A stretch of 64,000 bases of DNA, taken from an archaeon. Lineage in GTDB: Archaea > Nanobdellota > Nanobdellia > SCGC-AAA011-G17 > GW2011-AR17. The stretch spans positions 61,978 to 125,977 of the forward strand of contig JBDRRK010000008.1 of the NCBI GenBank assembly GCA_043825775.1, written 5' to 3'. The position numbers were made by a program, and so were the translations under genes. Below are positions 3,624 through 54,832 of this stretch, one piece after another. The first letter of the stretch is position 1, and the number at the start of each line of letters is the position of its first letter. Below the pieces are notes generated by a model. That model was not told where the DNA came from. It saw nothing but the letters and a program-made list of their open reading frames with translations, and searched no databases.

Positions 3624-4547
3624 TTAAAGAGATTGGAGGTAGAGTTCTAATGCTCCTATCCCTATTGGTGCATGTGCTCCAGGCTGTGAATCAATAAATG
3701 ACCTTATTGATCTAGGATTGTCTCTCACAGGGATTAAAGGAAAGTGTTCCCATGCATCATGGGGTAGACCTCTTTCTTGCATGATTTCCCTTTTAGCTTT
3801 TGTATCATAGCCTTGTCCAGTCAATATTTGATAAGTTGCATTAGCATTTTCATTAAGTTGAATTAATTGTTCTGCTGTTGCTTTTGCTTCTACTAAACCA
3901 ACAAATTTTATTCCGGTTGGTCCAAGTAATGGCTGTGTTGCTTCAAAAACTCCAATCAACCCTTTGTATTCACAATCAATTTTATCTCCACCAAGCTCTC
4001 CTTTAAATTCATCTATTGCTGTAACTTCTAAAGGGTCTGCTTCAAGATTAGAAGGGAATGATACGGAACCACCAGGTGGAAGCCCATATAAACCACAAGC
4101 AAATCTTCTAATTCTTAATTCATTAACTTCTCCACCTCTAATTCCAACTAAAATCTTATTATCTCTTGTTCTTGTTACTCCAATCATTGCTAATTGGTAG
4201 AAAGGATTTTTTCCAAAAGCTCCGCCTCTTGCAGCTTGTATTTCATAAGATGGGATTCTCATTCCTTCTAAAGCTAAATGATTTCCAGGTTGTGTTAATG
4301 CTTCTGGATTTGTAAGTGTTAATACTTCTTCTTTCCAAGCAAGATCTTTTTCTGCTGTTATTCCTCTTAATTCTGCTAATGCTTCCCAATTAGTAGGATC
4401 ATATAAAGAAGAGTCTGCTTTTCCTTCAAAATCTACAGTTCTATCTTCTACTTCAAAAGAAGTGGTTGTGTCTTTTAATGATCTAATAATCCTAAATGAG
4501 TTGTCTTGTATAATTTTTAAGACTTGTTCTTGTGTTGCCTGTGCCAT
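3624..4547 (-). CDS. Hypothetical protein (compositionally GC-richer than its neighbours)
   Basis: 307-aa ORF, Gly/Pro-rich. No motif I can name from sequence. Confidence 0.4.
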   Translation of the reverse strand: MAQATQEQVLKIIQDNSFRIIRSLKDTTTSFEVEDRTVDFEGKADSSLYDPTNWEALAELRGITAEKDLAWKEEVLTLTNPEALTQPGNHLALEGMRIPSYEIQAARGGAFGKNPFYQLAMIGVTRTRDNKILVGIRGGEVNELRIRRFACGLYGLPPGGSVSFPSNLEADPLEVTAIDEFKGELGGDKIDCEYKGLIGVFEATQPLLGPTGIKFVGLVEAKATAEQLIQLNENANATYQILTGQGYDTKAKREIMQERGLPHDAWEHFPLIPVRDNPRSIRSFIDSQPGAHAPIGIGALELYLQSL

Positions 4548-4645: not shown

Positions 4646-5032
4646 ATGGAAGATGGAATAGATCCCAAATCAACAATGAGCGAAGAAGAAAGAATAGCTG
4701 CTATAGCCACTTTGCAAGAATATGTAAGTAAAAAAGTAGAAGTTTTATATTATTATAGGGAGAGTGTTTACTCAGGTAATTTTCCAATAGTAGAATTAAA
4801 ACCTGAAGGGATTGTATTTCAGTATAGCTCTATTGATGACTATATGGATACTCCTCCTAATGAAGAAATTCCAACACATGAAGGATTATGGAAATTTGTT
4901 GGTGAAAAAAGATTTGAAATAATAATAATGAAAATAAAGGAGTTTGAAACAGGAAAACTTCTCTATGAGAATAGAGAGGTTGGTCCAAATCAGGATGAGG
5001 ATCTTGAAGATAGAACTTTGAGTTCTAGTTAG
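4646..5032 (+). CDS. Hypothetical acidic protein
   Basis: 128-aa ORF in an intergenic slot. No recognisable motif. Confidence 0.3.
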   Translation: MEDGIDPKSTMSEEERIAAIATLQEYVSKKVEVLYYYRESVYSGNFPIVELKPEGIVFQYSSIDDYMDTPPNEEIPTHEGLWKFVGEKRFEIIIMKIKEFETGKLLYENREVGPNQDEDLEDRTLSSS

Positions 5033-34838: not shown

Positions 34839-35141
34839 ATGTTTATAAAAGTTAGAGGTGATATTATGAAACATGGTCAATTAAACAATCTGGCTTTTGC
34901 TTGGGTTTTTGCTATTTTTGGTGCTGTTGGTACTTTTGTCATTGGAGTTCTAGGACAACTAGGGATGTATATGGAAGGAGTTGTAGCTAATCAATTTTTA
35001 GAAGTTATGAATATTTCAAATCCATTTTATATCTTTGATTTGAGTACTTGGTATGGAACTTTGTTAGGAACTGTAGAAGCATTTGTGTTTTGGTTTTTGA
35101 TGGGTTATGTATTTGCTTTGTTATATAACAAATTTATTTAG
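34839..35141 (+). CDS. Small membrane protein
   Basis: 100 aa with 3 TM helices. Confidence 0.3.
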   Translation: MFIKVRGDIMKHGQLNNLAFAWVFAIFGAVGTFVIGVLGQLGMYMEGVVANQFLEVMNISNPFYIFDLSTWYGTLLGTVEAFVFWFLMGYVFALLYNKFI

Positions 35142-35852
35142 AAATTCCTCTTCAACAAAATGTAAATCTCCTGGGATGATTAAACATTGAGGATATTTTT
35201 TTATTTCTTTTACATTCTTTGCTTCTGTGTAGATTATAGTTGGTTCTTTTGATCCTAATTGTGCACAGACAATTACTTTTGTATCTTCTGTTAATACATT
35301 CTCTTTTCTTTTGGATTCTATATTTAATAAGAAGTTAATTGCTTCTTTAGCTTCCATGAACTTATCTTCTTTTGGTGCTAAATCTAATAAACATAATGTG
35401 TGTAAAGGTTTATTATTCTTAATTACCTCATAAGGAGCTTCAACATTTTCATTGTGGAATGGAATTGATGTTGTTTTTCCATATTTGTATAGTTCTAATC
35501 CCACAATGCCTACTGCTGTTAAAACTGAAGCATTTCCAATTATATTTACTTCAATGTTTTGTGCTTGTTGTAATAATGATAAATGAGTTGTTGCTGAAAA
35601 AGGATCTCCTATAACTAATAAAGATACATTTTTTTCTTTAGCTTCTGCGATAAGTTCTTCACCAGATTCAACAAAAGCTCTTTCTACTAGCTTGATTTCT
35701 TTGCCATATAATTCTTCTAATTTTTCTTTAGGAACTTGTAGTTTAGAGGTGTAGTTTTCCAAATAAATGGAGTCAGAGTTTTTGACTAGCTCTAGACCTT
35801 TTAGAGTTATATCCTTCTCGTCGTTAAGTCCTATACCAATTATGTTTAGCAT
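35121..35852 (-). CDS. dph5: Diphthine synthase (diphthamide biosynthesis methyltransferase)
   Basis: MLNIIGIGLNDEKDITLKGLELVKNSDSIYLENYTS tetrapyrrole-methylase-fold N-terminus typical of archaeal DphB. 243 aa. Confidence 0.85.
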   Translation of the reverse strand: MLNIIGIGLNDEKDITLKGLELVKNSDSIYLENYTSKLQVPKEKLEELYGKEIKLVERAFVESGEELIAEAKEKNVSLLVIGDPFSATTHLSLLQQAQNIEVNIIGNASVLTAVGIVGLELYKYGKTTSIPFHNENVEAPYEVIKNNKPLHTLCLLDLAPKEDKFMEAKEAINFLLNIESKRKENVLTEDTKVIVCAQLGSKEPTIIYTEAKNVKEIKKYPQCLIIPGDLHFVEEEFLNKFVI

Positions 35853-35928: not shown

Positions 35929-37047
35929 TTACTTGACGCTACGCTCCGAGTTGTAAAGTTTTAAGTATCTGTTTATTTCTTTAGTTGATATTTCTTTTGA
36001 AAATCTATTTTCAAATTCAGTTAAAATACCTTTTCTAAATTTGTAAGTATCTGCATGCTTTGAATAGGCTAACCAGCCCTCTAAAAAATCATAGATTTTA
36101 TCATACTCAATAACTCCCTTTTTATATTTAATTGTATATAATTTAAATTTGGATTTAAATCTTCTTTTATTTTTCTTTTGAATAATCTTATGATTTGGAA
36201 AAATCTTGAAACCTAAAAAGTCTGTTCCTCCTTGTAATGGAAATATTTTTGTTTTATCTGGATGTAGTTCTATATCTAATTTATTCATTAGAAATGATTC
36301 TATTTTCTCTTTGTAATTTTCTAAGCTTTCTTTTGATTTGTCAAGAATGACGAAATCATCAACATAACGAATGTAGTATTTTACTTTAAGTTTATGTTTT
36401 ACAAAAGAATCCAGTTCATTGAGGTAAAGATTCGCAAAGAATTGGGAGGTTAAGTTGCCAAGAGGCATGCTTTTTTCTGTTCGCCCCCTCCCCCCAATTG
36501 GATTTTGAAGGATAATTTTTATTAACCACAAAACTCTTGAATCTTTGATTTTCTTTTGTATTATTTCAAATAAAATTTTGTGATTAATATTCTCAAAATA
36601 CTTTTTTATATCTGCCTTAAGTACATATGCTTTTGAAATGTTATTATTTGTTACTTTTCTCTTGAAATAATCAAACCTTTCAATTGCTTTTAAAGAACCC
36701 TTGTTAATTTGATTTGCATATGAATCTAAGATAAAACCTTTTTCAAATATTGGGGCTATTATACTGTAGAGTGCGTGATGGATAACTCTATCTCTAAAAA
36801 TAGATTTGCTGATTTTTCTTGTTTTTGGATCTCTTATTATGAAATTTACAAGAGGCTTGGGCCTATAGATATGAAAAATTAATTCTGAATGGAGCAAAGA
36901 GAGATTGTTTTTAAGATTTCTTTTGAATTCAATTACATAGTCCTTTGTTGTCTTATTCTTTCTTGCTCTTTTGAATGCAAGTTTTAGGTTTTGAATACTA
37001 CACAATTCCTGCCATAAATCTCTTGTCATTATGAAATGCCTCAGCAT
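35929..37047 (-). CDS. Diversity-generating retroelement reverse transcriptase (DGR RT)
   Basis: RT motifs ADIKKYFENINH (domain 2), IRYVDDFVIL (YxDD) and the DGR-specific LGNLTSQ ([I/L]GxxxSQ) are present. The six-frame ORF runs to 37182 only because it reads through the template repeat. The likely true start is the ATG at 37047 (MLRHFIMT…), 13 nt downstream of the TR. Confidence 0.85.
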   Translation of the reverse strand: MLRHFIMTRDLWQELCSIQNLKLAFKRARKNKTTKDYVIEFKRNLKNNLSLLHSELIFHIYRPKPLVNFIIRDPKTRKISKSIFRDRVIHHALYSIIAPIFEKGFILDSYANQINKGSLKAIERFDYFKRKVTNNNISKAYVLKADIKKYFENINHKILFEIIQKKIKDSRVLWLIKIILQNPIGGRGRTEKSMPLGNLTSQFFANLYLNELDSFVKHKLKVKYYIRYVDDFVILDKSKESLENYKEKIESFLMNKLDIELHPDKTKIFPLQGGTDFLGFKIFPNHKIIQKKNKRRFKSKFKLYTIKYKKGVIEYDKIYDFLEGWLAYSKHADTYKFRKGILTEFENRFSKEISTKEINRYLKLYNSERSVK

Positions 37048-37060
37048 ATCTTGGACTATT

Positions 37061-37157
37061 CCACGAAGCCAATTGTTAGCATTGTCAACGTTCCTGTCAT
37101 TAGCATTGAAGTTGGAATCGTTGTCAAAGTTGTTCAACCTGCAAAGCCTCGCAACAG
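37061..37157 (-). repeat. DGR template repeat (TR), 97 nt
   Basis: 97-nt imperfect direct repeat of 37499..37595. It retains adenines on the coding (minus) strand and encodes 10 Asn AAY codons (…LCRLNNFDNDSNFNANDRNVDNANNWLRG). Confidence 0.8.
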
Positions 37158-37338
37158 ATAGCTCATTTACTGTATTTTGCACTGCTGTTTCAACCCTATA
37201 ATTCGAAAATTATGTGTCACAGCTGTATTTCATGACAGATTAACTGCCTTAGCAAAAGAGCATGTAGTCCAACACTACTACTCCATAAGAGAAGCAATGC
37301 TGAGACAAAGAAAATAAAAAGATAATAGTTAATAAAAA

Positions 37339-38154
37339 TTATTGTTTTTTTAGCTCTAATAAAATCATTTCTTCCAATCCGGATAGATTCAAATCTTTCA
37401 ATACTAAACTTATCTGTTCTGAAGAATATGTTTCTGATTTAGGCTGTGAAATTTCCTGCGGAGTTTTTTGCGTGTCGCCTACGGCGCTGTTAGGTACCCC
37501 ACGAAGCCAATCGCCAGCATTGTCAACGTCCCTGCCATTCGCAACGAAGTTGGAATCGAAGACAAAGCCGTTCAACCCGCAAAGCCCCGCAACAGCACCA
37601 TCTTCTGGAATTGTATCCATAACATATGTGTGTGTTGAAGTCCAGATTCTTGTTGACCTTTTTCCTGCATCTTTTAACATTTTAAAATTAGCTGCAAGAG
37701 TTTTATCTCTACCAAAAGGGACATGAACTAATTTTTGCTCTTCTGGATTTAAATCAGAAAGTGAAGGATCTGAAATATTCACTTCAAATCTATCATAAGC
37801 ATTATTCGGTTTTATGAACCTCACTTTTGAAAGATCTACTGTTACTATCCCCTGTCCAAGAGCCTTTCTTAACTCTTGTTGTGCAGGGTTATAACTTCCA
37901 GTTGTTCTCAGCTGGGAAATTGCATCATCTAAATTTCTTAGTATTAATGGATATTTTGAAAAAGTCAAACCTTGCCTTGTGTATATAGGATTGTCTCCAG
38001 TTATGTACCATTTGTTTTTCGTAACTGCATTATCCAAACCTACATTGTTAATTTCTCTTCTTCTTGCATTTGTTATTTTCAAAGCTCTGTCCAGACTTTT
38101 GAATTTGTCTGCATTTTGTGCAAACGAACCTTGTATCTCATATGTTTGTGCCAT
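37339..38154 (-). CDS. DGR target (variable) protein with C-terminal variable repeat
   Basis: 271-aa ORF on the same strand as the RT. Its 3' region contains the VR (…LCGLNGFVFDSNFVANGRDVDNAGDWLRG…). The WLRG end and Asn/Asp-rich variable scaffold resemble C-type-lectin/FGE-fold DGR targets. Confidence 0.75.
   Translation of the reverse strand: MAQTYEIQGSFAQNADKFKSLDRALKITNARRREINNVGLDNAVTKNKWYITGDNPIYTRQGLTFSKYPLILRNLDDAISQLRTTGSYNPAQQELRKALGQGIVTVDLSKVRFIKPNNAYDRFEVNISDPSLSDLNPEEQKLVHVPFGRDKTLAANFKMLKDAGKRSTRIWTSTHTYVMDTIPEDGAVAGLCGLNGFVFDSNFVANGRDVDNAGDWLRGVPNSAVGDTQKTPQEISQPKSETYSSEQISLVLKDLNLSGLEEMILLELKKQ
37499..37595 (-). repeat. DGR variable repeat (VR), 97 nt, inside the target gene
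   Basis: 82/97 identical to the TR. Fourteen of the 15 mismatches are at positions that are A in the TR coding strand. The first 13 nt on the plus strand (3' end on the coding strand, GGCTTCGTGG) are identical. Confidence 0.8.
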
Positions 38155-38380: not shown

Positions 38381-38728
38381 ATGAAATTAAAACCGTTGAT
38401 GCCCAGTTTAAGGGAAAAGAAGCGTTATATTGCTTTTGAAATTAAATCAAAGGAAAAATTATCCTTTAATGAGGCAAAACAGGCTATAGAGGACAAGATG
38501 AAGGAATTTATCGGTACACTAGGTATGGCAAATGCTGGACCAATATTCCTAAATGATTGGGAAGATAATAAAGGAATTGTTCGAGTTAATTCGAAATTCG
38601 TTGATCATACTAAAGCTTCATTGGCTTTGATTAAAGAAGTTAATGGTAAAAAAGTTTTATTCCAGAGCATAGGTGTTTCTGGAGTTATTGACAGATTAAG
38701 AAAGTCATATTTTAAAGGAGGAAAATAA
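38381..38728 (+). CDS. rnp2: RNase P protein component Pop5 (Rpp14 homologue)
   Basis: MKLKPLMPSLREKKRYIAFEI… matches the archaeal Pop5 N-terminus (LPP(S/T)LREK.RY.AFE). Sits in the conserved position upstream of psmA in the exosome superoperon. Confidence 0.75.
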   Translation: MKLKPLMPSLREKKRYIAFEIKSKEKLSFNEAKQAIEDKMKEFIGTLGMANAGPIFLNDWEDNKGIVRVNSKFVDHTKASLALIKEVNGKKVLFQSIGVSGVIDRLRKSYFKGGK

Positions 38729-48852: not shown

Positions 48853-49044
48853 ATGAGTCTGACAAAGAAAGAATTGGAAGTATTGGAGTTAAAGAAAAAA
48901 GGGTTTACTCAGATTCAAATAGCTAAGAAGCTGAATATTTCACAGCCAGCTGTTTCTTCATTTTATAGAAATGCAATGTTGAAGATTAAGGATAGTTATG
49001 AAACTGTAAAGCTAGCAAAAAAACTTAGGATAAAAGATGAATAG
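48853..49044 (+). CDS. Tfx-like / sigma70-region-4-type HTH DNA-binding protein
   Basis: LTKKELEVLELKKKGFTQIQIAKKLNISQPAVSSF is a LuxR/Tfx-type HTH. Overlaps the start of the giant ORF by 8 nt. Confidence 0.5.
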   Translation: MSLTKKELEVLELKKKGFTQIQIAKKLNISQPAVSSFYRNAMLKIKDSYETVKLAKKLRIKDE

Positions 49045-52000
49045 GGAACTAATGAAATACATGATTGTATTGATTTTGGTAGTTGGAGGCGTATTAGTTT
49101 TCTTTGGAGACTTTACGGGTTATACTTTCATTGAGCCAAATACTATTGAGTTTGATATTAATAATTCTTGGAATCTTTCAAATGGGTTTACAAGAGTTAG
49201 TCAGGGAATAGATATATTTGATAATGATATTATTATTGTAGAAAATAAATCAGTTGTTGATTTAACTAGTTATAATTTAACTAATGGAACTATTTATGTT
49301 GATTTAGTTATTGATGAAATGGTTGTTGATAGTGAGATAGTTAATTATGGTTCTAATGAGACTACACCTCCCAAAATTGTTGAAGAACCAGTGAATGAAA
49401 CCATTGTTGATACTGAACCAGTGAATGAAACAATTCCTGAAGAACCTTTAATTATTCTTGATGAGATAATAGAAACTCTAGATGGAACTAATGCTCCAAC
49501 ACATACACAGCCTCTGTTGAATGCTTCAAGTAATAATAATTTAACAACTGATAACTTAACAGTATATAACCAATCAACTGCTGATTTGGATGGTGATTCT
49601 GTTAAAAATATTTACAACTGGTATATGAATGGAAGTTCAATTACTGTTTTGAACATGCCTTTTGAAGGAGGTTCTTTGAATGGAAGTGGTGTTGCTGATG
49701 GTGCAAAGGATTATTCTGGATATAATAATAATGGTACAATCAATGGACCTGTTTGGTTAAGAGATGGAGGCTATGATGGATTTGGAGCTTACAAGTTTAA
49801 TGGAATTGATGAAGAGATAGATATTCCTTATGATAGTTCTTTTGATTTCAATAAAACTGGGGAGTTTACAGTTATGGCTTGGATTAAAACTGATACTTTA
49901 GTTAATGATAATGGAGATATTGTAAATCATTATATTATTACTAATAATAATCGTTCTTGGTCTCTACAGATTAGAACTAATGTTGCTAGATTTGTTGCTT
50001 GTGAAAATGGTTCTCTAGTAAGTTGTCAATATGCTACTGGAACAACCAGTATTGGTAGTAATAGCCCTTGGATTCATCTTACAGGAAAATGGGATGGAAG
50101 TAATATTTATGTTTATGTTAATGGGGAAAGTGATGATGCTACTCCTCCGGCTTTAACCTCATTGTATCCTATTGATTCTAGTAGATCTTTAGAAATTGGT
50201 TTTGATAGAGTTTCTGATGATTTTAATGGAAGTATTGATCAAGTTATGATTTTTAATAGAAGTTTATCTGATGAACAGATTAGATTAATGTATCAAAATA
50301 GAACAGATATGATACATTCAGCTGAAACTAAATTGAATGAAAATTGGACTTCAATTATTACTCCAAATGATGGTTGGGTTGATGGTACTTCTCTAATAAG
50401 TAATTCATTAGTTATAACTGGTGCGGCTAATAATGTTCCAAGGGTATCTAGTATTTTGTTGAACTCTACTTCAAGTAGGAATAATACAAATGGTTCATTG
50501 CAAGTATCATGGGTTTTCTCAGATGATGATGGTGGAGATTCTGAAATGGATAATGAAACTCAATGGTATCAAAGAATGACTAATGGAAGTGTTATTAAAA
50601 ATACTACATTTACTAATCTTACATTTATTAGTGCTGGAAATCTGACTCCAACAGAGACTTTGAATTTCTCAGTAAGAGTTTATGATGGAACAGACTGGAG
50701 TGCATGGAGTTCCAATGCTAGTATTTATATTACAAAGTATAATAATTTATCAAATGTATCCTTAGGGATATATCCTAGTCCATTAAATATAAATCAGAAT
50801 ATATATGGATATTGTAATTTTACTGATATTGATGGGGATTATGAAGGCTTAGGAAAATATAGATGGTGGAAAAATGGAACTACACTACTTGAAGAAAGAG
50901 ATCTTTCACAATTATTTTTGATGCACTTTGATTTAGAAGGTTCTGCTTATAACAATACAGTGGATAATGAAAGTGCTGTAAATGTTACTGGACTGACTAA
51001 CTTTGTTGGAAAATATGATAGAGATGCATTTGTAACTACAGGAGATAGACTTCAGTTTAGAAGTGCTGGAAATATAAACAAAAGTTCTGGAACCATATTG
51101 TTCTGGCTACAACCTAATTGGAATGATACTGATGAGATTAATGAAAGGCCATTTATAGAAGATTCTAATGGTGATTTTTATATTTACTTTGAACCAGTTT
51201 CAGATCAAATAAAAGTTAATATTACTGTTAATACTACTTATATATTAACAACAAACACAAGTGCATTGAGTGGAGTATTGAATGATAATGAATGGATACA
51301 TGTTGCTATAATGTGGAATTTGAGTACTGATTTAGTTCAGGTTTATTTGAATAATACATTATATGCTAATAATACTGAAGATGTTGATTGGAATACTTCT
51401 TATCCAAATATTGGAACAAATATTGATATTGGACAGACAAATACTGGATCAAGAAGTATAAACTCTCATTTAGATGAATATGCAATATATGATAAACCAT
51501 TGTTGAGGAAACACCTAAGTGATTTTATTAATAGAAGTTTCCCAATAATGAATAATGAAATTTTCTTAGATAGTATCAATATCCAAGATGGAGATAATAT
51601 TACATTTGAATGTGTTCCTTATGATGACATTGAATATGGATTAGGAATTAATTATACAGTAACCATACCAAGCAATACTATTAGTAACACATATGCAAAT
51701 TTAGCTAAATCTATTATTGCTGGAGATGGTGTTGTAGAGTTTGTTGCAAATTTCAGTTCAAATTATGGAATTGAGGCTATATGGCTTGAAATAAATGAGA
51801 GTGGAACTACAACTGCAACAAATGAAAGAGAATTTGGGTATTTAATTGATGATTTAAGTTACTTTGATTGGGCAAATGATTTCAGAACAAATGAAAGTGA
51901 TGATGTTAATATTGTAGAAACTACATCTGGATATATCTTGTATGCAGGAAATATTTCATATAATTTTACAACACCAAATACAGATTATGTTTATGTACGA

Positions 52001-54832
52001 AGATATATAGACTCTATAAATCTAAGTGATTATTTCCAATTACATTATTATATGAAGGCTGATACTGCAAATGTAGTCCAAACAAGAATAAATGTTTATA
52101 ATACAAGTTCGGATGGAACTATGACTTCTTGTGATTACCCTAATTATCCAAATATAGGTACAACTGGATGGCAAAAAGTAACTTTAAACATTTCCTCTTT
52201 TAATAAAACAGACTGTGATTTAGGGAGTATTAGCTTGATAAAACTTACAGTTAATGATATAACTGATACTGATACTTTTAGTGGCTCCTTTTTAATAGAT
52301 GAAATTTATCTTACCAATGGAAGCAATAAACCTACTGATGGCCAGATTAAATTTAATTATAAACCATTAACTGATTTAAGTTCCAATGAAAATGTTACAT
52401 TGAGAATATTTGCAAGGGATGTTACTGGATATAATACTTCTACTGTTTGGTATAATCTAACTGTTGATGGAGATGTTCCTAACCTCCTTAATTTTACATA
52501 TTCCAATGATTATGGTTATTCATATAATACAATTATCTTAAATGGTACTTTTAATGATACTACAACACCTGATTATTTTTGGTTTGAAGTTGAAATAGAT
52601 GGTGCAAGGCATAATACTAGTTCAAGGCCTATTGGTTATTATCTTGATACTTTTGATGATCCTAATTGGTTGTATGCCTCTGGATTGGTTAAAGGAACAA
52701 ATGTAAGTGTTGAAAGGGTTGAATCAGGATTTATAGATAAGGGTATGAATATTAGTTATAATTACCCTGATTCTGAAGCAACTGATTACTTCTTTTTAGA
52801 ACATAAAATGAACCCAATGGTTGTTGCTGATTATGATGAATTAAAATTCCAAATAAAATCTGATAATTTGAAGTATCACCAAATGAGAATGGATTTATGG
52901 TGCGAAGATGAAAAAGCTCCTGAAGAATATAGAGTTGTAGCAAGACAACATTTAGCAAGAACTACTGATTGGGAAGAGGTTGATTTCAAAGAAGCTGAAT
53001 TCTTTGTTGATTCTCCAACATGTTCAATAAACTCAACTAATATAACCACAATGAAATTACAGTTTGGGGATTATAATAATAGTGATAGTGGGGGGGGTAA
53101 TTTAACTATAGATGAAATGTATTTTATTAAAAGAGATAAACCTATTTCTAATATAGGCCAAGTTCCTTTTATATTTGAATGGGTAAATCATAATGAATCT
53201 GGAAACTTTTCATTTAGGATTTGGTTTAATGATAGTACTGGACATGAAAACAAAAGTAATTGGATAAATATTACTCAAAAAACATTTAGTTCTGCTACAG
53301 GAATTATTGCAGTTGATAATGGCTCAATATTAGATGAAATCTCAAATTGGAAGGATAATACTATACAAACTAATTATACCTCTCCAAGTTATGAAGAAAA
53401 ATTAAAATTTAAGAATATAACTCTTGATTTATTAGATGGAATTAAAAATAATAATATAAATGAAAGTAAATTAAATGATGTTGCAGGACAGTTAGATTCA
53501 TTTGGATATGAACTAGTAAATTATAGTGATAATGTTACAGGATATAATTATTATATTATAAGGGAGAATAGTATAAGTAAGGGTTGGGGTGGCTTTGTCT
53601 TTAATCCTCACACATATTCAAATTTAATTTTAGAATCTCCACATCCAATTTGGGATACAAATTCAAGTATTGTTAGCTCAATTATTTTCACAGAGATGTT
53701 TCCTAAGGCATTAGTTGTTTCTACATCTTATAGATATGCGAATCCAAATGATATTAGTGATGCGGGGCATAGTGAGGATATGCTATTTGCTGCAGTTCAT
53801 GACGCATTGATTGAAAATACAACTGATTCAATTGTTATGCAAATACATGGGTATAGTGCAAGTGGATTGAATGATTCTACTTGGCAAGTTATTATTAGTG
53901 ATGGAGTTGGTTTAGAAAAAACCCAAGAAATGAATGATTTGGTTAATAATCTTTCTAATGCACAATACAAAACCTGTGTTTGGAATTACAATTGTAGTTT
54001 CTATAGTGCTACTAATGAGGCTAGTGCCCATGATACAAAAAGATCAGGTGGACAGTTTATACATGTTGAGTTAAATACATCAATTAGAGTTTATGATAAT
54101 GAAAGAGAAAACATAACTAGGATATTGACTGACTTTAGAGAATGGTTACCTCCTAATGTTACTTTAGTTAGCCCTAGTGATACTGCAACATTTAATACAA
54201 GCAATATTACTTTTGAATGTAATGCTACTGATGCAAAGAATGTTACAAAGATTACTCTTTATATCAATAGTAGTACTGGTTTTGATAGCAATAGTTCAAG
54301 TATAATGAATACAAATATTACAAATGTAAGCTTTGTTGAATATTTACCTGCTGGATCTTATACTTGGAATTGTTTGGGAAGAGATTTAAGTGGTAATGTT
54401 AATTTTGCAAGTAGTAATTTTACATTTACTATAAATGGAAGTGCTGTCACTGAAACTACTACTCCTGAAACAACAACTGGATCTTCAAGCTCTTCAGGTA
54501 CTGAATCAAGAGATATCTCTGAAAATAAAACAGAAAAAGAGGAGTTTATTGAAGAGGAAGAGAAGGAAATTAAAGAAGATGAAAGTATTGTTGAAGAGAT
54601 TATTGAAGAAGAAATTGAGGAAGAGGGAAGAATTTTAGAAAATTATTATTCTCAAATTGGAGCAGGGGTAATTGTAATTTTCCTTATTGTCATTTTATTA
54701 TTTTTAGTTATAATACTAATCAAGAGATTGAAAAATAGAAAGAAATCTGATTCATTACATAGGAAATTAGTTCTTTACTTAAAGAAAAGAAAAAGAAATA
54801 AGAGAAAGGTTAAGAGAAAGATATCTTATTGA
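49037..54832 (+). CDS. Giant N-glycosylation-sequon-rich cell-surface protein with LamG/ConA-like lectin domains, N- and C-terminal TM segments
   Basis: 1931 aa. N-terminal hydrophobic segment (YMIVLILVVGGVLVFFG) and C-terminal TM (GAGVIVIFLIVILLFLVIILI) followed by a K/R-rich tail. Thr/Ser linker and acidic EEE stalk precede it. At least two LamG-like jelly-roll regions (…FTVMAWIKTD…WIHLTGKWDG…VYVNGE… and …GTILFWLQPNW…WIHVAIMWN…VYLNNTLY…). Dozens of N-x-S/T sequons. Confidence 0.7.
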   Translation: MNRELMKYMIVLILVVGGVLVFFGDFTGYTFIEPNTIEFDINNSWNLSNGFTRVSQGIDIFDNDIIIVENKSVVDLTSYNLTNGTIYVDLVIDEMVVDSEIVNYGSNETTPPKIVEEPVNETIVDTEPVNETIPEEPLIILDEIIETLDGTNAPTHTQPLLNASSNNNLTTDNLTVYNQSTADLDGDSVKNIYNWYMNGSSITVLNMPFEGGSLNGSGVADGAKDYSGYNNNGTINGPVWLRDGGYDGFGAYKFNGIDEEIDIPYDSSFDFNKTGEFTVMAWIKTDTLVNDNGDIVNHYIITNNNRSWSLQIRTNVARFVACENGSLVSCQYATGTTSIGSNSPWIHLTGKWDGSNIYVYVNGESDDATPPALTSLYPIDSSRSLEIGFDRVSDDFNGSIDQVMIFNRSLSDEQIRLMYQNRTDMIHSAETKLNENWTSIITPNDGWVDGTSLISNSLVITGAANNVPRVSSILLNSTSSRNNTNGSLQVSWVFSDDDGGDSEMDNETQWYQRMTNGSVIKNTTFTNLTFISAGNLTPTETLNFSVRVYDGTDWSAWSSNASIYITKYNNLSNVSLGIYPSPLNINQNIYGYCNFTDIDGDYEGLGKYRWWKNGTTLLEERDLSQLFLMHFDLEGSAYNNTVDNESAVNVTGLTNFVGKYDRDAFVTTGDRLQFRSAGNINKSSGTILFWLQPNWNDTDEINERPFIEDSNGDFYIYFEPVSDQIKVNITVNTTYILTTNTSALSGVLNDNEWIHVAIMWNLSTDLVQVYLNNTLYANNTEDVDWNTSYPNIGTNIDIGQTNTGSRSINSHLDEYAIYDKPLLRKHLSDFINRSFPIMNNEIFLDSINIQDGDNITFECVPYDDIEYGLGINYTVTIPSNTISNTYANLAKSIIAGDGVVEFVANFSSNYGIEAIWLEINESGTTTATNEREFGYLIDDLSYFDWANDFRTNESDDVNIVETTSGYILYAGNISYNFTTPNTDYVYVRRYIDSINLSDYFQLHYYMKADTANVVQTRINVYNTSSDGTMTSCDYPNYPNIGTTGWQKVTLNISSFNKTDCDLGSISLIKLTVNDITDTDTFSGSFLIDEIYLTNGSNKPTDGQIKFNYKPLTDLSSNENVTLRIFARDVTGYNTSTVWYNLTVDGDVPNLLNFTYSNDYGYSYNTIILNGTFNDTTTPDYFWFEVEIDGARHNTSSRPIGYYLDTFDDPNWLYASGLVKGTNVSVERVESGFIDKGMNISYNYPDSEATDYFFLEHKMNPMVVADYDELKFQIKSDNLKYHQMRMDLWCEDEKAPEEYRVVARQHLARTTDWEEVDFKEAEFFVDSPTCSINSTNITTMKLQFGDYNNSDSGGGNLTIDEMYFIKRDKPISNIGQVPFIFEWVNHNESGNFSFRIWFNDSTGHENKSNWINITQKTFSSATGIIAVDNGSILDEISNWKDNTIQTNYTSPSYEEKLKFKNITLDLLDGIKNNNINESKLNDVAGQLDSFGYELVNYSDNVTGYNYYIIRENSISKGWGGFVFNPHTYSNLILESPHPIWDTNSSIVSSIIFTEMFPKALVVSTSYRYANPNDISDAGHSEDMLFAAVHDALIENTTDSIVMQIHGYSASGLNDSTWQVIISDGVGLEKTQEMNDLVNNLSNAQYKTCVWNYNCSFYSATNEASAHDTKRSGGQFIHVELNTSIRVYDNERENITRILTDFREWLPPNVTLVSPSDTATFNTSNITFECNATDAKNVTKITLYINSSTGFDSNSSSIMNTNITNVSFVEYLPAGSYTWNCLGRDLSGNVNFASSNFTFTINGSAVTETTTPETTTGSSSSSGTESRDISENKTEKEEFIEEEEKEIKEDESIVEEIIEEEIEEEGRILENYYSQIGAGVIVIFLIVILLFLVIILIKRLKNRKKSDSLHRKLVLYLKKRKRNKRKVKRKISY

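Follow-up and report, generated by a model that had tools for sequence, protein, structure and literature searches.

The window analyzed here, a stretch of 64,000 nucleotides (nt) of archaeal DNA (contig JBDRRK010000008.1 of assembly GCA_043825775.1), carries a diversity-generating retroelement (DGR) in the form of a self-contained, four-part cassette of ~2.2 kb, composed of a target gene with a variable repeat (VR), an RNA of the Rfam family RT-16, a template repeat (TR), and a gene for a reverse transcriptase (RT). The explanation that best accounts for the data overall, and one that is considered reasonably probable, is a DGR cassette without a gene for the accessory variability determinant (Avd), whose template RNA is structured by RT-16 and by a long-range helix across the TR, termed helix A. 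The accessory-less architecture, the Rfam RNA, and the lineage itself were already known; what is new is the placement of RT-16 as the 5' domain of a DGR template RNA, together with a covarying helix that closes the template. Within its lineage, a very large group of archaeal DGRs that only exceptionally encode Avd in cis, the cassette is an ordinary member. Its parts (sizes in nt or amino acids (aa)) are located as follows:

37339 to 38154, minus strand: target gene, 271 aa, with the VR near its C-terminus, followed by a tail of ~50 aa
37499 to 37595, minus strand: VR, 97 nt, inside the 271-aa target open reading frame (ORF)
37496 to 37500, minus strand: initiation of mutagenic homing (IMH) element GGGGU at the 3' end of the VR; its TR counterpart is GGAAU
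37465 to 37486, minus strand: target-site hairpin CGCC-GUA-GGCG (37476-37486) followed by CGCAAAAAA, within the target ORF
37153 to 37303, minus strand: Rfam RT-16 RNA (RF03019), a full-length match to model positions 1-158 of 158
37061 to 37157, minus strand: TR, 97 nt, with 27 adenines
37058 to 37062, minus strand: IMH* GGAAU, with G, A, A, and U invariant across 46 loci
35929 to 37029, minus strand: DGR RT, with a probable start at ATG 37029 (366 aa) and an alternative at ATG 37047 (372 aa)

The locus is a real DGR, as seen in an RT of the Bordetella phage (bRT) type, the adenine signature of the TR and VR, the IMH/IMH* pair, and the target-site hairpin. The TR and VR form a 97-nt direct repeat with 85% identity, and 14 of the 15 mismatches (read on the minus strand) replace a TR adenine with another base in the VR, the remaining one being T>G. 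All 27 TR adenines occupy codon position 1 or 2 and none position 3, and no TR codon can be turned into a stop codon by adenine mutation. An identical IMH/IMH* pair is found in nanoarchaeal DGRs (PMC4372165). The hairpin, which has a GUA triloop and is followed by an A-tract, sits 10 nt downstream of the IMH, and in nearly all of 68 VRs from relatives the IMH is likewise followed by a GC-rich hairpin of 4-6 base pairs (G-N-A triloop) and an A-tract. Since the target ORF continues for ~50 codons past the VR, the hairpin and A-tract of this DGR are coding sequence; the tail itself (37342-37495, minus strand) shows a faint UBA-like Pfam match (E 0.06). The target protein has no sequence match in Pfam or PDB, and a search of the window for further remote VRs or targets found none, leaving a single VR in a single VR-bearing gene.

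DGR-clade RTs carry an [LIV]GxxxSQ motif together with YxDD, and the LGNLTSQ and YVDD motifs of the window RT are invariant in the family alignment. Among PDB entries, the Bordetella phage bRT (8ub7_A) is closest both in sequence (E 2e-42, query residues 9-337) and in fold (template modelling (TM) score 0.85, for an AlphaFold (AF2) model with a mean confidence (pLDDT) of 87); beyond the bRT-aligned part, the protein ends in a two-helix C-terminal tail of ~35 aa. Retron RTs match the window RT only at E 1e-6 or worse in sequence and with TM scores of 0.44-0.52 in fold, and identity as a retron was rejected on these grounds and on the DGR type of the RT. The closest homologues of the window RT are those of Woesearchaeota, Nanoarchaeota, and further DPANN archaea. 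That the cassette is an inactive relic seems highly improbable: although there is no direct sign of activity and a second assembly of the locus (the sole other one compared) is identical in sequence, the RT is intact with its catalytic YVDD and its DGR motif, the VR differs almost exclusively at TR adenines whose codon placement spares third positions and avoids stop codons, and the cis elements are all conserved.

The spacer between the target gene and the TR (37158-37338, 181 nt) has no coding capacity for Avd, and it is here that the RT-16 match lies. With 73.3 bits, the match exceeds the gathering score of 50 (E 1.8e-9 for a search of the full window); it shares the strand of the RT and precedes the RT ATG by 106 nt, an arrangement also present in relatives. 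Of 20 related loci tested, 16 gave an RT-16 score above threshold, every match ending at the first TR nucleotides, and a profile search with nhmmer detected RT-16 in 70 of 80 related loci (loci are designated below by L numbers); in ~9 of these 70, RT-16 and the TR are on the strand opposite the RT. RT-16 is also present in the closest relative. A preliminary description of this DNA had proposed the spacer as the 5' part of the TR-containing RNA, and this proposal is strongly supported by an RT-16 element that is on the TR-sense strand, contiguous with the TR, and paired to the TR 3' flank. The same description had called the spacer AT-rich, which does not hold for the spacer as a whole (32.6% GC, with 37% in the RT-16 part, versus 30.0% for the window); strong AT-richness is confined to the 35 nt that follow the target stop codon (14% GC). 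Its statement that the spacer encodes no minus-strand ORF longer than ~8 codons is correct for ATG starts but not overall, given a 26-codon ORF with a TTG start (37297..37217) and a 40-codon stop-free run, none of them near the size of Avd. The 26-codon ORF and a 46-aa plus-strand ORF (37177-37317) were rejected as genes, having no family match and lying within or antisense to the structured RNA. The leader and the subdomains of RT-16, some of them delimited in the minimum free energy (MFE) fold, are:

37308 to 37338, minus strand: leader with 14% GC and TATA-like runs, from the target stop codon to the start of the RNA element
37277 to 37298, minus strand: P1 hairpin of RT-16, with 37291-37298 paired to 37277-37284 in the MFE fold
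37262 to 37264, minus strand: CAY linker (CAU), conserved, part of CAYG
37161 to 37261, minus strand: P2 domain of RT-16, with P2 pairing 37252-37261 to 37161-37170 and P3 pairing 37219-37223 to 37184-37188

A gap of 3 nt separates the end of the P2 3' strand from the TR. The leader is a candidate archaeal promoter; relatives often have CTTTTTAT-like motifs 20-40 nt upstream of the GUCY start of the RNA, which is weak evidence in an AT-rich genome. RT-16 was described as one of 19 'RT' motifs found near RT genes, for which membership in retrons or DGRs was only speculated (Weinberg et al. 2017, PMC5737381), and its mentions in the searchable literature are confined to Rfam-wide lists, with no function assigned to the family. 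A separate, weak match to RT-11 (RF03106) spans 37180-37299 on the minus strand (40.7 bits against a gathering score of 143.5). Because they share a GGACUACAYGC linker and an ACAGC...UGAAGC..GCAGUG helix, RT-11 and RT-16 look like related DGR 5' RNA modules of different lineages.

The Rfam model of RT-16 stops at the TR and so lacks two helices, A and A0, whose 3' strands are located beyond the TR:

37265 to 37275, minus strand: helix A 5' strand, GUGUUGGACUA, ending in an invariant A
37048 to 37058, minus strand: helix A 3' strand, UAGUCCAAGAU, whose first base is the U of GGAAU
37297 to 37307, minus strand: helix A0 5' strand, UGUCUCAGCAU, pairing with 37037-37047
37037 to 37047, minus strand: helix A0 3' strand, AUGCUGAGGCA, which includes the first in-frame ATG (37047) and GAGG (37039-37042)

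The window contains an inverted repeat of 37292-37307 against 37037-37052, and the MFE structure of 37020-37345 has the RNA 5' end paired to the sequence that follows the TR (z = -2.4). In helix A, the 8-11 nt just 5' of the RT-16 CAYG linker pair with the sequence that begins at the U of IMH* GGAAU, directly after the TR. The same complementarity (6-10 nt immediately 5' of CAYGC against the sequence from the U of GGAAU) was seen in 17 inspected loci, with compensatory changes such as GGACUA/UAGUCC, GGGCUA/UAGCCC, GGCCA/UGGCC, GGAUCA/UGAUCC, and GGAGCCA/UGGCUCC. In a test across 46 loci that was blind to pairing (the 5' anchor being the CAYG motif, and the 3' anchor the end of the A-biased TR/VR homology and the next AAT), 77.9% of helix A cells were paired versus 61.9 +/- 1.5% after shuffling that ignores phylogeny, with a covariation score of 0.534 versus 0.253, and none of 500 shuffles reached either observed value; registers slid by 1-3 nt gave 25-44% paired cells. 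The innermost pair is an invariant A-U, and the pair next to it (11-31) forms in every locus, 30 having UA, 15 CG, and 1 UG. The frequency of G-U pairs in helix A (e.g., 14 at pair 8-34) indicates that the pairing is that of an RNA of the TR-sense strand rather than of DNA. RNAalifold, applied to a fresh MAFFT alignment of 24 constructs from which the TR interior had been removed, recovered helix A, P2, and P3 de novo and added a Y-G pair (column pair 110-277) between the Y of CAYG and the G of GGAAU, such that a 2x2 internal loop remains, in which the invariant C-A of CAYG is opposite the invariant A-A of GGAAU. Between them, P2 and helix A turn the TR into a loop of ~95 nt held at a junction, with its 5' end abutting P2 and its 3' end running into helix A.

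For helix A0, the cognate flank duplexes have a mean energy of -19.1 kcal/mol versus -12.4 kcal/mol for non-cognate ones, and the cognate partner ranks in the top 3 of 46 in 24 of the 46 loci. The A0 3' strand is purine-rich (GCUGAGGC in the window; GCUGGGAC, CUAGGA, and CUAAGAC in relatives), is placed 7-12 nt upstream of the RT ATG in most loci, and covers the ribosome-binding region of the RT and, in the window, also ATG 37047. These features would fit a reading in which helices A and A0 serve mainly to control translation of the RT, by hiding the Shine-Dalgarno region and start codon, and do not position the template. Such a reading is nonetheless judged decidedly unlikely. Helix A is retained in loci where RT-16 and the TR are on the strand opposite the RT and are not beside its start (L013, L023, L027, L028, and L048), which speaks against a role in translation alone. 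The helix is also tied to the 3' end of the template by its boundaries, the invariant U of IMH* being the start of its 3' strand and the invariant A-CAYG marking the end of its 5' strand, and roles in translation and in template positioning are compatible with each other.

The six-frame RT ORF (35929..37182, minus strand) has a GTG start, encodes 417 aa, and reads through the TR, and the public annotation of the window RT (P0001) takes this 417-aa form, which is an artefact. Of 43 relatives that have the TR just upstream of the RT, 18 keep the RT frame open across the TR and the other 25 close it with a stop codon in or after the TR; since 18 of 43 is close to the chance expectation of 1/3, the read-through is regarded as a coincidence of frame, as had been surmised from the window alone. 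In the nearest relative (L083), the RT starts with MTRDLW, equivalent to ATG 37029 of the window, the ATG equivalent to 37047 is out of frame, and the TR is annotated as a separate 55-aa gene (4837-5004). The earlier choice of ATG 37047 was right in its arithmetic, in that this codon gives 372 aa and follows the TR by 13 nt, but it is probably 18 nt too far upstream to be the RT start. Across the family, the RT ATG is mostly found 27-29 nt after the U of IMH*; the two window ATGs are at +11 (37047) and +29 (37029), and a Shine-Dalgarno-like GAGG (37039-37042) precedes ATG 37029 by 9 nt. Based on the family spacing, the upstream GAGG, and the MTRDLW start of L083, the RT start is set at ATG 37029, which is likely to be correct in preference to 37047.

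The contrary reading, namely that the RT is truly translated from GTG 37182 with the TR encoding an N-terminal extension, is barely credible. The frame is indeed open in the window, and Asn-rich, TR-derived N-termini are annotated in ~9 of 33 aligned homologues, yet these are absent from the rest, most relatives interrupt the frame, the nearest relative starts at MTRDLW with its upstream ATG out of frame, and the alignment to bRT begins only at residue 9 of the 372-aa form; the extension is merely the VR reading frame inherited by the TR. Gene callers appear to misannotate TRs systematically, as N-terminal extensions of the RT (e.g., P0001), as N-terminal extensions of Avd (e.g., P0125 and P0144, where Avd is annotated with 172 and 154 aa), or as separate small genes (e.g., L083 4837-5004). 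At the other end of the protein, a subfamily of RTs (L010, L011, L013-L016, L018, L021-L023, and L026-L029) carries a C-terminal extension of 110-200 aa with the Pfam domain HTH_40 (PF14493, E 1e-16 to 1e-17), often followed by a Cys-rich module; most of these extended loci have RT-16 and the TR on the strand opposite the RT, and the extension may be a fused accessory domain.

The absence of Avd is real locally, typical of the lineage, and not new. Avd was taken to be a basic four-helix-bundle protein of ~110-130 aa and was sought with the Pfam models PF22296 (bAvd) and PF05635 (23S_rRNA_IVP), the NCBIfam models NF033474 (DivGenRetAVD) and TIGR02436, and a custom hidden Markov model (HMM) built from 38 sequences; PF18765, the accession suggested in the preliminary description, could not be confirmed. 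Two relatives served as positive controls in the same runs (L040 and L050), and both were detected above threshold by PF22296 (E 1e-10 to 1e-12) and by NF033474 (5e-18). The four database models had no match among the 104 window ORFs of 70-260 aa (stop to stop, six frames) or in the window translated in six frames, where the custom HMM returned E = 1.9 at best, no Avd-like domain was found fused to the RT or target, and no Avd was found in the 10 kb beyond the window start. Thus, three sources of HMMs that detect the controls find nothing in the window, in agreement with the earlier conclusion that no Avd-like gene is encoded locally, and neither of the findings that would have overturned it (an overlooked short avd-like ORF in the window, or an Avd domain fused to the RT or target) emerged. 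The suggested comparison with other archaeal DGRs points the same way: a cis-encoded Avd is present in just 2 of 80 related loci (L040 and L050; flanks of up to 6 kb on each side), 77 of the 80 have no Avd-type gene within +/-6 kb, and database clusters number 38 for Avd of the control type versus more than 6,600 for the RT. The nearest relative (P0002/L083, RT 78% identical) consists of target, RNA, TR, and RT only, without Avd, in an unrelated genomic neighbourhood. More generally, a published survey counted avd in 74% of DGRs and an 'architecture A' devoid of accessory genes in 29%, and when genomes of the avd-less kind were scanned with profiles for an avd at another site, none turned up (Wu et al. 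2018, PMC5758913).

Two further candidates for an accessory function were considered and rejected. An unrecognized, conserved small accessory ORF did not emerge from all-versus-all clustering of 1,121 ORFs (60-260 aa) from the 80 loci, in which only targets and unrelated neighbours recur. The notion that the C-terminal tail of the RT (F..EISTKEINR, confident helices 335-371) offsets the loss of Avd is unsupported, as many Avd-less relatives have tails as short as those of Avd-containing ones. Two loci outside the window are recorded as observations in their own right. In L086 (GCA_016783545.1, JADHWJ010000009.1), a PF22296 avd homologue follows a sub-threshold RT-16 (42 bits) with no adjacent RT gene, and an HD-domain gene follows the avd homologue on the other strand; the locus may be a decayed DGR. 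In L065 (Nanoarchaeota SCGC AAA011-G17, AQRL01000028), whose contig also holds a second DGR (L038), a four-helix-bundle gene of the 23S rRNA intervening sequence (IVS) protein family (PF05635, 9097-9477, minus strand, E 8e-36) is located 2 kb downstream of the DGR RT; no other Avd-less locus has a candidate for a trans-acting Avd-like gene nearby.

Several points weigh against an Avd-less cassette with an RT-16/helix A-structured template RNA. Transcription, cDNA synthesis, and current activity are predictions from sequence; the shuffle control for helix A takes no account of phylogeny, and some loci (e.g., L016, L018, and L021) fit the ungapped register badly, requiring a bulge. The RNA alone does not explain independence from Avd, because Avd-containing relatives mostly keep RT-16, and L040 and L050 also keep helix A. 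The inspected sequence amounts to ~74 kb of a larger genome (the window is part of a 174.7-kb contig), such that Avd or another factor may be encoded in trans, and the Avd-less L065 does have its PF05635 gene 2 kb from the RT. The last two points, along with the finding that Avd is essential in the Bordetella phage system (PMC5758913; bioRxiv 10.1101/2023.10.23.563531), would favor dependence of the DGR on an accessory protein, Avd-like or other, whose gene lies elsewhere in the genome. This alternative is considered unlikely given the lack of any match in the window and the 10 kb beyond its start with models that detect the controls, the 77 of 80 related loci that are empty within +/-6 kb, the recurrence of the same four-part unit in unrelated genomic contexts, and the failure of published profile searches to find avd elsewhere in avd-less genomes (PMC5758913).

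Comparison with described systems places the cassette among the DGRs of Nanoarchaeota (DUSEL4 and SCGC AAA011-G17) and other DPANN archaea (Paul et al. 2015, PMC4372165), which belong to the same RT lineage; the RTs of the AAA011-G17 loci L038 and L065 are 53-58% identical to the window RT. Shared features include the IMH TGGGGT and IMH* TGGAAT, a GC hairpin with a 3-nt G-N-A loop in the target gene, and the order target(VR)-TR-RT. In those DGRs, small ORFs between the RT and target were flagged as possibly Avd-like by isoelectric point (pI) and size (PMC4372165), whereas the corresponding interval of the window has no such ORF and contains the RT-16 structured RNA instead; the hairpin loop also differs, being GUA rather than GRA. 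The cassette resembles 'Architecture A1' (the TR-RT core; Wu et al. 2018, PMC5758913) in having no avd, HRDC, MSL, or CH1 gene and a TR immediately upstream of the RT. In that survey, 90% of the set from the candidate phyla radiation (CPR) and DPANN had architecture B3, TR-(avd)-RT (Wu et al. 2018, PMC5758913), unlike the lineage sampled here, which is overwhelmingly avd-less.

Relatives from Aenigmarchaeota that do encode avd (L040, L050, L084, L087, and L089) have RTs ~50% identical to that of the window, and most of them have RT-16 upstream of the TR (71 bits in L087, 59 in L040, 52 in L050, 51 in L089; 42, below threshold, in L086; none in L084), with helix A present in L040 and L050 as in the window. 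The idea that RT-16 replaces Avd was ruled out by this co-occurrence. Unlike the window, these avd-containing relatives have a TR with an extra stem-loop insert of ~28-55 nt before the last homology block. The insert, which marks a subgroup that includes these relatives and is missing from the VR, lies between the mutagenic part of the TR and the final VR-homologous block of ~26 nt that precedes GAAU and helix A (L040 5584-5640, L050 5089-5150, L084 ~3947-3975; also L033, L038, L039, L054, and L071), and it may be an Avd-binding stem-loop.

The DGR of Bordetella phage BPP-1 (mtd-avd-TR-brt; PDB 8ub7) shares with the window a homologous RT, adenine-specific differences between TR and VR, and the IMH/IMH* logic, and in the RNAs of both systems the TR flanks pair across the TR, which is looped out between two adjacent duplexes. 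In the BPP-1 particle, a template:primer duplex is formed by TR 117-129 with spacer (Sp) 47-56, priming occurs at A56, and this duplex is located 2 nt from the 'cPRT Stop' duplex of TR upstream and downstream sequences, with the TR looped out between them (bioRxiv 10.1101/2023.10.23.563531). The conserved structured RNA of BPP-1 is, however, a 140-nt spacer 3' of the TR, while that of the window is 5' of the TR and is not accompanied by avd; the TR-to-RT gap of the window is only 13-31 nt, which leaves no room for a 3' spacer. The strand that pairs beside the template 3' end in the window comes from upstream, so that the RNA is connected much like a circularly permuted BPP-1 RNA. For the Avd-binding stem-loop of BPP-1, no equivalent was identified in the window RNA, and Rfam RT-10 is unmatched in the window. 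The window RNA is thus not a DGR RNA of the BPP-1 type (Sp-primed, Avd-dependent, with a structured 3' spacer).

In retron msr-msd RNA, an a1/a2 helix closes the structure with the branch nucleotide beside it. The window RNA resembles this arrangement in topology alone, by analogy, in that its 5' flank is paired to the template's 3' flank and an invariant unpaired CA is placed immediately 3' of the helix A 5' strand, beside the template 3' end. Unlike retrons, the cassette has an RT of DGR type and TR/VR logic, it has no effector gene, and no multicopy single-stranded DNA (msDNA) is known for the element.

Under the favored explanation, one transcript starting near 37307 would carry RT-16, the TR, and the RT mRNA. 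The folded RNA would set the 3' end of the TR, through helix A, for initiation of the cDNA, possibly acting as a primer in cis, and P2 against the 5' end of the TR would act as a stop that limits the cDNA to the TR; by analogy, helix A and P2 may in these roles be counterparts of two duplexes of the Bordetella phage DGR RNA, the template:primer duplex and the 'cPRT Stop'. The RT would carry out priming without Avd. Formation of A0 and translation of the RT would be mutually exclusive on one RNA molecule, and A0 could in this way couple folding to translation. A more specific and rather doubtful proposal is that the lineage uses an Avd-independent, retron-like (circularly permuted) form of DGR cis-priming in which the primer is the helix A 5' strand provided by RT-16. 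In such a scheme, the 2'-OH used for priming, opposite the AA of GGAAU, would come from the invariant A at the end of that strand or from the invariant C-A beside it, and P2 abutting the TR 5' end would be the stop.

The window has 30.0% GC and encodes archaeal housekeeping genes for the proteasome alpha subunit, SBDS, Rrp4/41/42, Pop5, RpoK, threonyl-tRNA synthetase (ThrRS), and diphthine synthase. The cassette itself, which belongs to a DPANN archaeon, is flanked by the housekeeping genes dph5 (35121-35852) and pop5 (38381-38728). A region of ~40 kb (window 419-31604 and L081) is rich in glycosyltransferases, B12-binding radical-SAM enzymes, sugar epimerases, and polysaccharide-synthesis genes, and constitutes a large cell-surface glycan cluster adjoining the DGR region. 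On the other side (48853-54832, plus strand), a 63-aa gene of the LuxR/GerE helix-turn-helix (HTH) type is directly upstream of, and overlaps, the gene for a very acidic protein of 1,931 aa (pI 4.3) with a hydrophobic N-terminal segment, probably a giant surface protein.

Avd-less DGRs make up roughly one quarter of the total, and an Avd-independent mechanism of cDNA initiation has only been inferred for them (Wu et al. 2018, PMC5758913). The window provides a clean and compact example (target, ~150-nt RNA, TR, and RT within ~2.2 kb) from a lineage with thousands of members, and it exposes a systematic error in the annotation of TRs, of which the 417-aa RT is an instance. The orphan Rfam family RT-16 gains a role, that of the 5' domain in a DGR template RNA, and its structure is enlarged by the covarying helix to the template 3' flank; the architecture of this RNA suggests a testable model for Avd-independent priming, with concrete nucleotides that can be mutated. 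If cis-priming were to prove true, a 366-aa RT and an RNA of ~280 nt would constitute a complete minimal diversity generator, and the cassette may possibly offer a minimal two-component DGR for engineering.

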